19,595 bases of DNA, from contig JAYZAY010000099.1 of NCBI GenBank assembly GCA_036339465.1, positions 1 to 19,595 of the forward strand. Direction: 5' to 3'. Shown one piece after another: positions 7,276 to 18,343 of this stretch. The stretch's first letter is position 1. Each line of letters begins with the position of its first letter. Below the pieces are notes generated by a model. The model did no database searches and was not told where the DNA came from. It saw only the letters and a program-made list of their open reading frames with translations. Source of the stretch: Myxococcota bacterium. Lineage in GTDB: Bacteria > Myxococcota > XYA12-FULL-58-9 > JABJBS01. Both the position numbers and the translations under genes were made by a program.

Positions 7276-7773
7276 TTATTCGCTGATATTTTCGGGGTCC
7301 CTAGGATTGTCTGCGACCTCATCACCGACATCGTTGGAATTCCTAAATGTCTGCATTTTGGTGTTGTAGTCCTTCAGAAGAAGGCGGGAAAACAGCGCGG
7401 GATTGACCGGCTTGAGTAGCCAGTTTTGACGGGTGTGGGTGTGGGTATGGGTATGGGTACTGGCGTTACTGGGGCCATGCTCACAGGTTTCGGTGCACAT
7501 CATGAACACCGTTGCGCGTTGGAATTTTTTATAGTCGTGTTCCGCCATTCGCTTGATGGTTGTGAATCCATCGATTCCTTCCATATGGACATCACAAACG
7601 ACATACCCAATGTCATTACGAGACTGAAAAATAGCCAGCCCCTCCTCACCCGATGCCGCTTCGACGATGCGCACGATTTCACCGCCGCTGGGCGAGGTCC
7701 CCACACCTCGAAAGGGCTTTCGCTGGGGCTCTTGATCATCGATAACCAGCAGAATATTGGGCGGGTGGTCCAT
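7276..7773 (-). CDS. Single-domain response regulator (CheY-like receiver) with a Thr-His repeat insertion
   Basis: The acidic pair (LVIDD), phospho-acceptor (VVCDVHMEGIDG), MCTE threonine and WLLKP lysine are all present. A GGAG SD precedes the ATG. Confidence 0.85.
   Translation of the reverse strand: MDHPPNILLVIDDQEPQRKPFRGVGTSPSGGEIVRIVEAASGEEGLAIFQSRNDIGYVVCDVHMEGIDGFTTIKRMAEHDYKKFQRATVFMMCTETCEHGPSNASTHTHTHTHTRQNWLLKPVNPALFSRLLLKDYNTKMQTFRNSNDVGDEVADNPRDPENISE
7431..7460. repeat. Imperfect 6-bp tandem repeat (GGGTGT)2(GGGTAT)2GGGTAC, encoding (TH)4T in the receiver protein
   Basis: Read directly from the sequence. Confidence 0.9.
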
Positions 7774-11560: not shown

Positions 11561-11926
11561 ATGGATGAACTGACAGAAGCGCAATTGAAGCAGTTGAAGC
11601 TGGATCTCCTCGAGCTGGAAACCGAACTCCAGGAGCTGATGGATATGAGTCGTGAAGGCGTGCAAATTGTTGAATTAGACCAGCCCATCGGACGATTAAC
11701 CCGAATGGATGCTATACAACATCAACAAATGGCGAAGGTTAATCGGGAGGGGCACGGGCGACGCTTGACCTTGGTGCGGGCGGCCATTCAGGCGCATTCC
11801 CGAGACGAATTTGGCTTTTGCAAGCGTTGTGAAGAGTCAATTGGTTTTAAGCGGCTGAAGGCACGACCTGAATCACCATTGTGTTTGCACTGTCAGTCAG
11901 CATCGGAAAAGCTACAAGCTCGATGA
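11561..11926 (+). CDS. TraR/DksA family C4 zinc-finger protein
   Basis: N-terminal coiled coil, then VELDQPIGRLTRMDA and FGFCKRCEESIGFKRLKARPESPLCLHC. ATG 11561 is my preferred start. Confidence 0.9.
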   Translation: MDELTEAQLKQLKLDLLELETELQELMDMSREGVQIVELDQPIGRLTRMDAIQHQQMAKVNREGHGRRLTLVRAAIQAHSRDEFGFCKRCEESIGFKRLKARPESPLCLHCQSASEKLQAR

Positions 11927-13689
11927 TTTAAAGATCCACGGATAGGTAACATCAGCAATTCTCCCTCCTCGGAAGGGTGCGAAGCGTAGACGCTGAATCA
12001 CTCTTTGGAGACAGGTCTCGCTTTGAGAATTGACTATGGTGGAATCTTCTATCTCTACAACCTGGACTTTTCCGGCTCCATCAATCACAAATGTCGTAAT
12101 GATTTTCTCACTAAGTCCGGGGTTTCTGGGAAACTCTTTCTCGTAGCAGTATTTTGCTTGGTTGGTGATACTTTTGAGTACCCGCTGGACCACTTCTGAT
12201 TTGAGACAACCCGACGCCTTTGTCTTTCCGGTGGTGACCAATAACCAGTTTTTGCCTCGACTACCCAGTATAGAACCCAACCCGAGTGAGTTCTGAGTTT
12301 ATTTTGAGATCTCCAAAGAACCGATTCCAAAAGTTTCATGGAACTTGCCTCCCTGGGAGCCTCGTGTTCGCAATGTGGCATCGTCAGAAAGGAGAGCGGT
12401 GTTTTTCGAATTCAGAGAGCCTAGGGCATCGTTGAGTCTACGACTAAGGCCTCATTGCCGAAAGCGCTCGCGTCATCTAAATGAGCTCCCCCTAAAACAT
12501 TGAATATATCCGGTTTTTTAGCAGCTTCTAAGTCCCCTGAGCGATTATGTTCGTCCACGTTGGGGGTGGAAGCTGATTGAGATTCTATTGTTCTAATTTT
12601 TTCCTTATTGGTGGTGGATTTATGGGTGGTCGCACCGGTTGGTGCGGATGATTTACGTAAGTCGATTGTAAAACTATTTTTCGGTTTTGGTCCTATGTTT
12701 GCGGGTTTGATGATGATTTGGGGAAATCGGTCTGTGTTCAAAAACTGTGTGCTTTCCTGGGATTTTGAGGCTAACGGTGTCAATAAGAGAGCGATCAGGA
12801 AAAATAAATGCCCTATAAATGAAAGTGACATTACCTTGATGAAGTAGTCGTCGCGGCTTTTTAGAAGACTGGTTCGGATAATTCTCGCTGGTGCGACGTA
12901 TTGAATGATAAACGTGATATCATTCCACCCCACACAGATACGGTCATGGAGGTCCATGTGGATGGATAAATGGCCATTAGAAGGCCTTACGTGATCACTG
13001 TGTTTGTGACGGTACCAGCAAAGGTCGCCACCTTCGAGGGCCGAGTCCTGAATAGCGATTTTCATTGAACTGCGGATGTTTAGGACAAAGGTTTCTTCTG
13101 ATTTGGATAAAAGACAGAATCGATTACTTTCGGTAGGGGTTGGGGCTCGGAAATCGTTTTTAATGCTTGTTCCTACAAAAACATCTTTGGGGGATTTAAA
13201 ATGGCTCACGCTTACTAAATCCCCCCTCCATAACATGGCGACCTCAAGGACGTTTTTTGCTGGTGTAGGCGTATCAACCAGAGAGATTTTTTCGGTAAAC
13301 AATTTTTGGCTTAGTCTATATGTAAATCGTTCATCATTAACGGATGCAGCGAACCATTGATTCTCTTGCTGAAAAACAGGAGGGAGTGACGGGAGCTGTG
13401 GGGCTTTACCTACATTGGTCGACATATCAGCGAACCAATCCATCTCGTCTAGCTGAGAGGATAGGGCGAGCTCATTCATGTGTTGGTCGATGCTATCGTC
13501 GAATTCCTCACAGCTTATATTTGAGAAGTCGCCGTTTTCTGGAGTCACGCAGAGTTTTCGCAGGATAGAAGCCGTGGTTGGATCCAGCCTCAATGTTGAA
13601 TCAGTGTTTGAATCAATGCTGTGGTGATGGCGTTTCATCTTTTTCCCCTTTAAATACCTGATAGGAAATCGCTGCATAAATCGTTCCAC
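11912..13689 (-). pseudogene. Disrupted GltG/AgmX(PglI)-like gliding-motility membrane protein with a TonB-like C-terminal domain
   Basis: The 5' piece (13689-12421) has VLEVAMLWRGDLVSVSHF and a TM helix (FIKVMSLSFIGHLFFLIALLL). After a frameshift near 12440 the sequence continues LNDALGSL...RTRGSQGG...FGIGSL, hits TAA at 12301-12299, then runs in frame into the 12280-11912 ORF. That ORF carries KYCYEKE..RNPGL..K...FVIDGAGKV...ETCL...VTYPWIF, the AgmX/PglI C-terminal domain. Confidence 0.75.
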
Positions 13690-13805
13690 TTTTGTTTGCG
13701 CCGGATGGGTCTGATTCGGTGACAGCTCTCACAGGAGGGACGTTTTCATGGGTTGATTGTCAAAATACGATGAATAAGTGTTGGCAATTTGACACTTTTT
13801 TGAGG

Positions 13806-13828
13806 TTCTTAGGGCATTTCTTAGGGCA
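13806..13828. repeat. Direct repeat TTCTTAGGGCA x2 (12-bp period) upstream of the GltG-like gene
   Basis: Read directly from the sequence: copies at 13806-13816 and 13818-13828. Confidence 0.6.
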
Positions 13829-14506
13829 CGCTGAATGGTTCTATATGCGGGTGTGGTTTCCTGTATGTTGTCGGGAAATCCAAGAGATATGTCCGTAATA
13901 TGACACGGTGAATCGGTGAGTGTCGATTTGTGTTGATGCCGTTTGGGATTGGTGAGGTTTCCGTGACCGACCTCACAAAAACCATTGAAATCATTTTCAC
14001 ACAAAAGCCTCTGGATTTGGCCACTTTTGGGAGCTCGCGTGGTTGGGTTTGAAAAAACAGGAAATACTTTTGTTAGAATTAAGACGTGTCATAATGAACA
14101 GGGTGAAATCGAGTTGTTTTTGGAACTGATATGATTTCGAGCCGAGAAATGGGTGATTTTACTCGGTGCCCTGAGGGTCTCTAAGTTTTTAGCCAACATT
14201 CCGGTGGTCAAGACGATGACCACGGGTTTCGTATGGGGAGCTGCGTGGGCAATGACCAACGTTTGCAGAGCTGAGGCACGCGCCAAGGGGAATGCTTCTC
14301 TGCAAGTGATTTTCGTATTCAGTTATCTACTGTGTTTGCTTTTGTAGCAGTGGGGCGACTGGCACCCAGTATAAGTGTGAGTTTGTGTGGAGTCATCGGT
14401 GGTGGATACAATTTTGAAATCAATGGGTCTGGATAAAAGAGTGTGCCGCAGCTTGTTTATCCTGGTAAGATGGGCATGATACAAAAAAAATTACTTTAGG
14501 ATCGGG

Positions 14507-16566: not shown

Positions 16567-17403
16567 TTAGTCAGAGGAGATAAGACTCCAGTTCGCCGCG
16601 GCTACCGCATCTAGATCAAAGCCCCCAGTGGTTTCACCATACCCATGGAAATTGCGTCCACTGTCTCGAATACGGATAAATCGTGCGGCCGGAAGTCCAA
16701 TGGCTGCGAGGTCAAAGGTGTCTCCACCGGCGTCTTTTGCTGAAGTGGGGTCAATAGGTTGGTCGCTGTTGGCATGAACGTAGCTTACACCAGCGCAACC
16801 GGGGAACAGATTGGGAAGATCTTCGGCGTCGCAAGGCCATTCGTGCCAAGTTTCACCATCCATACTGGCGGCCACCGCTGCGGTCTCGAACCAACCCAGG
16901 AAGGGGTTTTCGAAGACCAATAAGTCTGGTCCGGGCCCATCGGTGATCTCAAGATCGGTCATTTCCAAAATGATCGTGCCACCTTGACCTAGGGACAGCA
17001 CGTTCAGGGAGCCAGAAGTTGCCCCGCGACCTTCTGGTGAACCGAGGACTATCTCGGGGTATCCATTTTGCCCGAAACCAGCATGCGGGCCCGGGGAAAA
17101 GCTTACCACTCGGTCCGCGAATGGGTCAGTTCCAGTGGGCCATTCAGGTTGAAATGGCTGAGTAACGGTGTCGTCTAACAATCCATCGTTTGTGTCGGTG
17201 CTGCCGTCGTTTTCGTTGTGGAGTTGTTGAAGAGGGGTCGTCTCTGTTGTTGTGTCCCATTCTGATCCGGCACCAGATTCGATGGTCGCGTGGGGCTTTT
17301 TTGTGTTTTCAGACGCTCTTTGGCCGCAGGTTGCAAGGCTCAACAGCAAGATGAGCGGCATGGGGGCTTTCTTGGCAAGACCCTCGAAAGAGCAAGAGTT
17401 CAT
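16567..17403 (-). CDS. Cell-surface lipoprotein (LIC13355-like 'cell surface protein' family), probably cobalamin-regulated
   Basis: Lipoprotein signal ...KKAPMPLILLLSLAT|C, then a Thr-rich linker. Motifs: DPFADRVVSFSPG, VLGSP.G.G...GS..VLSLG.GG.I, DGPGPDLLVFENPF, GCAGV, AGGDTFDL..IGL...RFIRIRD, GGFDLDAV. ATG 17403 follows an AAGG that lies within a hairpin. Confidence 0.75.
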   Translation of the reverse strand: MNSCSFEGLAKKAPMPLILLLSLATCGQRASENTKKPHATIESGAGSEWDTTTETTPLQQLHNENDGSTDTNDGLLDDTVTQPFQPEWPTGTDPFADRVVSFSPGPHAGFGQNGYPEIVLGSPEGRGATSGSLNVLSLGQGGTIILEMTDLEITDGPGPDLLVFENPFLGWFETAAVAASMDGETWHEWPCDAEDLPNLFPGCAGVSYVHANSDQPIDPTSAKDAGGDTFDLAAIGLPAARFIRIRDSGRNFHGYGETTGGFDLDAVAAANWSLISSD

Positions 17404-17438
17404 TTTTCCCAACCTTTAACCCGAAGGCTTGTTTTAAA

Positions 17439-17668
17439 GAGCGCGGCAGGTTTGTCGGCTTGCAGTATTTGTCCGCTGGACATTCCCAGGATTTCCCTGT
17501 GCCATTTACACTGCTCTCACTGCTCTCACTGCTCTCACTGCTCTCACTGCTCTCACTGCTCTCACTGCTCTCACTGCTCTCACTGCTCTCACTGCTCTCG
17601 GCGGCGGGACCGGCTTGGCTTTCCACCCGCTTCCCTCTCTTGTCCAGCTTGGAGTAGCAGCGTGCCCC
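17439..17668 (-). ncRNA. Cobalamin (B12) riboswitch-like element, divergent, interrupted by a tandem repeat
   Basis: Minus-strand elements occur in canonical order: AGAGGGAA (GGGAA at 17635-17631), GCGGGTGGAAAGCC, CGGTCCCGCCGCCG, GCAGT able to pair with ACTGC (17466-17462), B12-box-like GGCACAGG-GAAAT-CCTG-GGAATG (17503-17481), and AAGCCGACAAACCTGCC (17461-17445). Confidence 0.7.
17509..17598. repeat. Perfect 9-bp tandem repeat (CACTGCTCT) x10
   Basis: Counted directly: ten identical contiguous units with no spacers. Confidence 0.97.
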
Positions 17669-18343
17669 AAAGCATTAATTGTTTGGTAGCTATCGTATTG
17701 AATGGTCATGTCAACGTTGAGTTGGGATAGATGATTGTAAGGTCGGTTTTTCTCTGACCTTTCAAGTGGCTATCATCAATGGATACTTCGTGGTCTTTAC
17801 CTCGCCGCGCGTTTCAGATTGGTGTTTGTGGAAAAGGCTGGTCTCTAGGTTGAACGGGCTGTTTCGAGGATGGGGAGAAGAGTTTCCCGTGGTGGAAAAA
17901 TCCATAGATGTCCAATGGGGCGGTTCGGCTCTTTGGTTCGAATTGTGTCCTCCGAGAATTTGTTGGTGATGGGTCGAGCGGCCAAAATTTCGTGGCAACC
18001 CATGGGTTCATATTGCTCGAAGGTTTCGACAAAATCACGGGATTCTGAGTGTTTGTGGCGGTATTGGATGTTTATCGGCTTCCAATTTTTTGTGAGATGA
18101 ACAATGATTTTTCTCCTGTTTGAGTTCCTGTTTCTCGAGTTTTTTGAGCTCGATGACGCTGTGGCTCTCTAGATGTTTCTCCCCACCCGATAAAATTGAA
18201 CTATGAATTAACCTTGCGCACCATGGACCAACGGCTTTTTGGCTCGGTATGGGCAACAAACGGTGATTTTCACCGAAGATCAACGAGAAAGAGTCCCCCA
18301 AGGTAGACCAACACCTTATTCATTTCTCTGATGGAGTTTCCTT

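Follow-up and report, generated by a model that had tools for sequence, protein, structure and literature searches.

The 5’ leader of a predicted lipoprotein gene in a Myxococcota bacterium holds a cobalamin riboswitch by descent, built like class I (17428-17679, minus strand), with a ten-copy tandem array inside it. We consider it probable that this is a decaying switch, likely blind to B12, that gained a slippage array from its own J6/7-P7 strand; the preliminary description of this DNA had offered decay as one of its options, and our preferred reading agrees with it. The window is a whole contig of 19,595 bp, without N, from a 4.17-Mb genome that is 93% complete, and the public runs that contain this genome are marine; no RNA run was listed among them, which has no bearing on whether the gene is expressed. 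Ordered riboswitch motifs, the array, the core substitutions and the association of the gene family with cobalamin riboswitches were all observed directly.

In an E-value search, RF00174 (model positions 1-189) matched the minus strand at 17428-17679 with 15.2 bits and an E-value of 0.14. The gathering threshold is 31.5 bits, and Rfam run at that threshold gave no match in the window, so the search of the uncollapsed sequence proposed in the preliminary description yielded a match, albeit one under the cut-off. Since 15.2 bits is not significant by itself, the identity of the riboswitch rests on its ordered motifs, the L5/L13 complement and the gene context, and on these grounds the original assignment to the cobalamin riboswitches holds by descent. 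The elements follow each other in the correct order: P1/P2, P3 with J3/4, P4, P5 with L5, P6, P7, P10-P12, J6/3 and then the P13 hairpin. The names of helices P8 and P10-P13 and of the J-segments follow the standard numbering. On the minus strand, the 5’ strand of P1 (8 of 10 pairs) and the P2 hairpin (5 of 7 pairs) lie at 17639-17668, each with two mismatches by reading of the sequence. The 5’ strand of P3, an intact J3/4 and P4 (2 of 5 pairs, from the aptamer comparison) lie at 17614-17636, and J4/5, P5 with an intact L5 that carries the kissing-loop half CCCG, and the 5’ strand of P6 lie at 17599-17613. Beyond the array, the P10-P12 arm with its J11/10 ‘AA’ (17479-17503) pairs in a shifted register, with P12 at a probability of 0.93-1.00 in all folds, and the 3’ strand of P7 is followed by P6 3’, J6/3 with both of its adenosines kept, P3 3’ and P1 3’ (17438-17466).

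The aptamer is followed by a 6-bp P13 hairpin (17411-17429, minus strand) with the loop CGGG, which is complementary to L5. The 3’ strand of P13 shares bases with the likely ribosome-binding site, which lies 8 nt upstream of the ATG at 17403. In an exact 4-mer test, 23 of 32 natural aptamers also had such a complement; the test speaks to complementarity only. A kissing loop between L5 and L13 is part of the design described for cobalamin riboswitches (PMC5028336, PMC7367189), and the J6/3 adenosines form the adenosyl pocket (PMC7367189). Upstream, a perfect TTGACA at 17709-17714 (minus strand), about 30 nt ahead of the aptamer, resembles a -35 hexamer and is a putative promoter element; no matching -10 passed the promoter scan, which returned 0 promoter-like sites. 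With the class I riboswitches of RF00174 (T. tengcongensis 4GMA and S. thermophilum 4GXY, as described in PMC7367189 and PMC5028336) the locus shares the P1-P6 order, the long P6 extension with P7 and P10-P12, J3/4, the J11/10 and J6/3 adenosines, the L5-L13 complement, a P13 over the ribosome site and a B12-uptake-type gene downstream. It differs from them in its score, the damaged P4, one lost P6 pair, four bases absent from 125 aptamers, the lack of P8 and a 91-bp perfect tandem array.

The gene behind the riboswitch (16567-17403, minus strand) encodes a predicted lipoprotein of 278 aa with a conserved Cys26, a low-complexity linker and a C-terminal discoidin-type domain that is most like the BtuH domain. 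The gene is present once in the genome, at a separate place from the other cobalamin riboswitch; no gene follows it in the same orientation, and its end faces a threonine-aldolase-type gene. Neither Pfam nor a sequence search of the PDB returned a match for the protein. The domain has a confident predicted fold (pLDDT 94.9), for which the top Foldseek match was 8BLW_B (BtuG1; E 3.9e-4, TM 0.48), with 7BIZ (BtuH2) third at TM 0.50; BtuG1 is described as having a BtuH domain (10.1101/2022.11.17.516869). Other discoidin and CBM32 domains scored close, and the discoidin domain of muskelin equalled BtuH2 at TM 0.50; the likeness to BtuH comes from Foldseek, at borderline TM-scores. The Bacteroides thetaiotaomicron proteins (PMC8941943, 10.1101/2022.11.17.516869) resemble ours as surface lipoproteins with a C-terminal discoidin-type domain in a cobalamin-riboswitch context, and differ in that there is no match at the sequence level (14-15% identity), the TM is borderline and the PKD domains are absent here.

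The lipoprotein has 1288 homologues, commonest in Myxococcota and some of them named ‘cell surface protein’ in myxobacteria. Among 25 homologous loci, 15 had an RF00174 match over the cut-off upstream on the same strand, two had one just downstream and five had none upstream; three offered less than 200 nt of upstream DNA, some of the loci are kin, and two are one contig. The riboswitch context at 15 of 25 loci, together with the BtuH-like predicted fold, suggests that the lipoprotein is likely a B12-capture protein. The large unnamed ‘cell surface protein’ lipoprotein family, usually found behind cobalamin riboswitches (loci L008-L033), would then comprise probable BtuH-like B12 binders outside Bacteroidota. 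In one genome (G002), the lipoprotein gene is present twice, each copy followed directly by a cobalamin riboswitch and not preceded by one (L025:864-1044 and L033:2067-2247). A public protein (P0001) that is 99% identical to the lipoprotein has 27 unrelated first residues, pointing to a chimeric contig or to a strain with different upstream DNA.

Tandem Repeats Finder confirmed, in the assembly, the ten-copy perfect 9-bp array on the minus strand that had been noted in the preliminary description (17509-17599; period 9, 10.1 copies, 100% matches), with a score of 182 compared to 46 for the second-best array of the window. As was also proposed there, the array occupies the P6 extension, a variable region, with the P5/P6 segment (17611-17599) on one side and the P10-P12 or B12-box segment (17503-17479) on the other, and GCAGT is present in all ten units and can pair with a single downstream ACTGC. 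The ACTGC (17466-17462) stands in the place of the P7 3’ strand, with which a unit forms 5 of 5 pairs. Each 9-nt unit is composed of J6/7 (three bases), the P7 5’ strand (five) and the first base of J7/8; P8, including its 5’ strand, is missing, and the array takes its place in a P6 extension that retains P7 and P10-P12. Perfect tandem repeats at 133 other cobalamin riboswitch loci reached 18 bp at most. The spacer from J6/7 to P10 measures 19-23 nt in 25 of 26 natural aptamers; at our locus it is 11 nt with one unit, 20 nt with two and 92 nt with ten. As two units match the natural length, we infer that the array most likely replaced the 5’ strand of P7-P8 as two units and then slipped.

The comparison with related genomes suggested in the preliminary description supplied no counterpart for the leader: blastn matches across 40 related genomes were limited to the repeat or to short parts of genes, with no close relative holding an orthologous leader, and an exact 22-nt pattern had 0 matches in viral contigs. 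Two of the blastn matches to the array (L002 in G035 and L003 in G026) are imperfect 9-bp repeats that look like coding DNA for a His-Xaa-Ser repeat (HxsA-type) on the other strand, and are unrelated to the riboswitch.

We compared the core of the aptamer with 32 natural aptamers drawn from members of its order and from homologous loci, and with 93 more from the phylum, for a total of 125. The second set was parsed from 100 further matches, all over the cut-off, and leaves 66 lower-ranked matches outside, so decayed look-alikes are under-sampled; a near-duplicate aptamer (L020, of L011) was left out of the HMM, core-base, fold-cost and spacer comparisons, and L051, with a mis-parsed J6/3, was also left out of the fold cost. 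Four core positions carried bases found in none of the 125 aptamers (0/32 and 0/93), a set that is conserved by construction since its members were picked by passing the Rfam cut-off, and in which kin are not independent. These are a C as the first base of J4/5, an A as the first base of J6/7 where all 125 have U, an A in place of the invariant last G of the P6 3’ strand, with loss of a C-G pair, and a C as the first base of J6/3. The third base of J6/3 was also considered as a defect (0/32 in the first set) and was not counted, as it occurs in 23 of 93 aptamers of the second set. P4 keeps two of its five pairs, compared to at least four of five in each of the 125 natural aptamers. With P3 at 3/3, P5 at 2/2 and P6 at 2/3, the junction stems do not give the four-way junction of paired P3-P6. 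Still intact are P3, P5, P7, P12, P13, the L5/L13 complement, J3/4, the J11/10 adenosines and both J6/3 adenosines. The three deviations from consensus quoted in the preliminary description, including GGCACAG for GCCACTG and GGGAATG for GGGAAGG, are present in the sequence.

We trained a profile HMM on the 32 natural aptamers, and it found the native leader in two pieces of 4.8 and 4.0 bits. When the leader was reduced to 0-3 units, the score rose to 18.5-22.3 bits, which is still below all of the 32 left-out natural aptamers (25.3-99.4 bits, the 28 highest at 53.1-99.4); the array thus costs some 10-15 bits and the substitutions account for the rest. This bears on the earlier proposal that the insertion hides the element from covariance-model searches. 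The element is indeed missed at the Rfam threshold, but we find no support for the insertion as the cause: Infernal passes 99 nt by a local end within the RF00174 alignment and still reaches only 15.2 bits, the 5’ half alone gives 11.1 bits and the 3’ half alone gives no cobalamin match. The other cobalamin riboswitch of the genome, which heads two lipoprotein genes, scores 87.1 bits with RF00174, arguing that the lineage is not generally divergent. Damage to the core goes beyond the array, and with a score under the cut-off and impaired junction stems the locus should not be filed as a functional member of RF00174.

It is possible, although we regard it as unlikely, that the locus is a divergent working riboswitch in which the first unit serves as P7 and the remaining nine form a weak, looped-out hairpin that replaces P8, leaving the array neutral. 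The kissing loop, the P13 over the ribosome site, P3, P5, P7 and the adenosyl-pocket adenosines known from the solved class I structures are all kept, the gene is intact and the genome encodes five proteins with a B12-binding domain. The P6 accessory region varies widely in length (PMC9600662; 53-145 nt in our natural set), and the array is predicted to form a hairpin of its own (-17.6 kcal/mol, z -2.3). The intact helices, L5/L13 complement and pocket adenosines look more ordered than random decay, and atypical cobalamin riboswitches do bind ligand (PMC7367189); both points count against decay. Three of five P4 pairs and one P6 pair have, however, been lost without compensation, the four bases have no precedent among the 125 aptamers, and the predicted probability of the native core at ten units is 0.0. 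The atypical yvrC cobalamin riboswitch of B. subtilis (PMC7367189) and riboswitches with variable P6 accessory regions (PMC9600662) do illustrate that departures in the P6 extension are tolerated and can alter corrinoid selectivity, but they keep a paired P3-P6 four-way junction, whereas at our locus the damage reaches the junction helices and a perfect tandem array forms the insertion.

Two kinds of shortened riboswitch were seen at other loci. Ahead of the same gene set, L010:93-234, L017:4263-4419 and L015:1-150 are short cobalamin riboswitches (142-157 nt) that keep P2 and are without the P10-P12 arm, and represent a natural truncated variant. In the same order, L057 (G008:C134:11773-11905) matches RF00174 at 19.4 bits; its 5’ half is intact, no 3’ half is recognizable, and it is possibly a decaying or truncated cobalamin riboswitch.

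We modeled the effect of copy number with ViennaRNA, which folds the RNA without ligand, kissing loop or pseudoknot, or co-transcriptional folding. In these models the locus could form 14 of 18 core pairs, compared to 16-18 of 18 in 31 natural aptamers, where the cost of forcing the core pairs was 0.7-13.7 kcal/mol (median 6.4). The corresponding cost at the locus was 10.7 kcal/mol with one unit, which falls within the natural range, 16.5 with two and 25.6 with ten. The cost was flat from 8 to 20 units, suggesting that the aptamer would be unaffected if one unit were gained or lost. The idea that copy number tunes B12 sensitivity, put forward in the preliminary description, therefore finds no support in the predicted cost, and no variation in copy number was observed among the sequence pieces, none of which bridges the array. 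The related idea of ten alternative registers for P7 fared no better: the first unit is the sole register that adjoins P6, and at ten units P7 is predicted to form almost only with the last unit (0.33, compared to 0.00 for the first). At six or more units, the 5’ strand of P1/P2 is predicted to pair with the array at 0.99-1.00, replacing P1/P2, and the array is also predicted to pair with codons 3-5 at 0.90-0.98 (37 C). A P4/L5 anti-aptamer hairpin appeared in one minimum-energy fold and was dropped, as its ensemble probability was 0.02.

The predicted pairing of the array with the 5’ leader (-23.1 kcal/mol) was matched by 20 of 1000 shuffles, 19 of 1000 permuted units and 61 of 2000 genome windows, and that with the start region (-22.1 kcal/mol) by 33 of 1000 shuffles and 53 of 2000 genome windows; both tests were devised after seeing the folds, and each stands at about 2-3%. 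The modeled cost of opening the ribosome site was 7.7-9.9 kcal/mol at one unit, 9.5-15.2 at ten and 11.4-15.5 at fifteen, depending on the range folded; one example range gave 8.2, 9.5 and 11.5 kcal/mol at 1, 10 and 15 units. Near ten units, each added unit raised the cost by about 0-2 kcal/mol, according to the range and temperature chosen, and in the shortest range the cost was flat from 8 units. These predicted leader and start-region pairings keep alive the idea of a rheostat, which is not strongly supported.

They bear on a further explanation, which we judge improbable, namely that the array is a selected contingency element whose slippage sets how much of a surface B12-capture protein is made, through tuning of B12 sensitivity or, blind to B12, through pairing with the start region. 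An equally improbable variant holds that the array at high copy would shut off B12 sensing and pair over the start codons, that subpopulations would set the protein level, and that contraction to one or two units would restore a foldable core. Pairing better than chance and an opening cost predicted to rise with copy number would fit such a role, a surface protein is a typical target, and none of the 133 other cobalamin riboswitches has such an array. There are also precedents in the 8-bp tandem repeat of the cssA leader of N. meningitidis (10.1101/583476) and the G-repeat of the H. pylori tlpB leader, targeted by RepG (PMC8295292), both slippage-prone repeats in the 5’ regulatory RNA of a surface-related gene. 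For those leaders, isolate variation and effects on expression have been measured and there is no metabolite aptamer, whereas our case consists of one assembled sequence and folding models. Against a contingency role, the pairing tests are post hoc, the effect varies in size with the range folded and the native-core cost is flat from 8 to 20 units. Furthermore, the contig pieces, none of them bridging, revealed no variation in copy number, no second instance was found among the 133 loci or 40 genomes, and the same genome has 44 other non-coding array loci.

The copy number of ten is that of the assembly, and support from sequence data came from contig pieces of eight public runs. None of these pieces extends across the array or across either of its junctions. 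A 39-nt piece that spans the 9-mer cycle and matches it exactly was present in six of the eight runs at a depth of 8-57, compared to 2-5 for flank pieces; by our own arithmetic a 91-bp array should give a depth excess of about 6.8-fold. Other organisms in the same runs have similar CT-rich repeats, so this piece is not assignable to the locus with certainty. The flanking bases 17226-17494 and 17623-17780 were matched without a difference by pieces from two studies, one of which may be the source of the assembly, leaving 17495-17508 and 17600-17622 uncovered. We therefore weighed the possibility that the array or its length is an artefact in which the assembler looped a short duplication. The want of bridging pieces and the repeats of other organisms speak for it, but the depth of the cycle piece and the position of the array inside a contig without N do not; arrays as long as 118 bp are spanned within contigs of this assembly, and others of 91-124 bp coincide with contig ends. 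An artefact would also leave unexplained the point substitutions, part of which the pieces from the two studies match exactly. We hold an artefact to be very improbable; the array is probably real, and its length is taken from the assembly alone.

A coding origin for the repeat is the least credible explanation that we weighed. With a period divisible by three and open frames on both strands, the array could encode a peptide of His-Cys-Ser repeats in the plus-strand ORF 17290-17730 or belong to an upstream ORF on the minus strand (17626-17309); the plus-strand ORF matches HxsA4 (E 6.7e-8), and blastn matched the array to repeat DNA in two other genomes. The HxsA4 match, however, reaches 33 bits against a cut-off of 55 and is confined to the repeat, no HxsB maturase in the genome is over the cut-off (best 33 against 370 bits), and the unit fits the J6/7-P7 position of the riboswitch exactly. 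With the HxsA4 match under its cut-off and HxsB absent at cut-off, we rejected both the peptide and the upstream ORF.

Across the genome as a whole we counted 94 perfect arrays (at least 30 bp and three copies) that merge into 81 loci, mostly with a period of 9-16 bp. Of these loci, 45 lie mostly outside long ORFs, in DNA that makes up 16% of the genome. A period that is a multiple of three was found at 15 of these 45 loci, as chance would give, compared to 33 of 36 loci inside ORFs, suggesting neutral slippage that is filtered by the reading frame. Loss of mismatch repair was considered as the cause of the arrays and rejected on the basis of MutS, the component searched for, which is intact. 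As a control, 195 kb of other loci held 11 arrays, in a set biased to linker repeats. About four non-coding array loci reach eight copies, and our own arithmetic puts the chance of such an array falling in a riboswitch at well under 1% per genome, yet it is to be expected somewhere across many genomes, above all in a switch under relaxed selection. Several contigs of the assembly end in arrays, and the end pairs C50/C77 and C34/C32 share a unit and could be joined.

In our preferred reading of a decayed switch, the ancestor would have been a class I switch that controlled translation through an L5-L13 kissing loop over the ribosome site, ahead of a btuH-like lipoprotein gene outside the main B12 operon. 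Uncompensated changes would have accumulated in P1, P2, P4, P6 and J6/3, and the 5’ strand of P7-P8 would have turned into two 9-nt units, of natural spacer length, that slipped to ten; either the core substitutions or the expansion of the array may have come first. The purine-rich array is predicted to pair with the 5’ strand of P1/P2, with itself and with codons 3-5, and these pairings would keep the four-way junction from forming. Expression of the gene would then no longer depend on B12, and the array, which likely survived because selection on the fold had relaxed, would dampen it somewhat. If this reading is true, the locus offers a clear snapshot of the death of a riboswitch through point decay and slippage of its own helix strand, with a B12-uptake gene uncoupled from B12, and such relics fall under Rfam thresholds. 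A literature search of open-access full texts, covering titles and abstract openings, returned no report of a slippage array within an aptamer. As one locus in one genome, it is a curiosity for RNA evolution; should copy number vary and set expression, it would represent a tandem-repeat contingency mechanism within a metabolite-sensing aptamer.

The rest of the contig yielded several minor observations. A 6-bp array of 4.8 copies (7431-7459) corresponds to a Thr-His run in a response-regulator receiver gene (7276-7773, minus strand). An ORF that extends past the end of the contig (18344-19595, plus strand; at least 417 aa) is divergent from the riboswitch, and about 600 nt of non-coding sequence separates the two. 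Within 11912-14004 on the minus strand, a 422-aa ORF (12421-13689), for which Pfam gave no match, and a short ORF (11912-12280), whose C-terminal part looks AgmX/GltG-like, stand one after the other and may be fragments of a single gene of the gliding-motility type.
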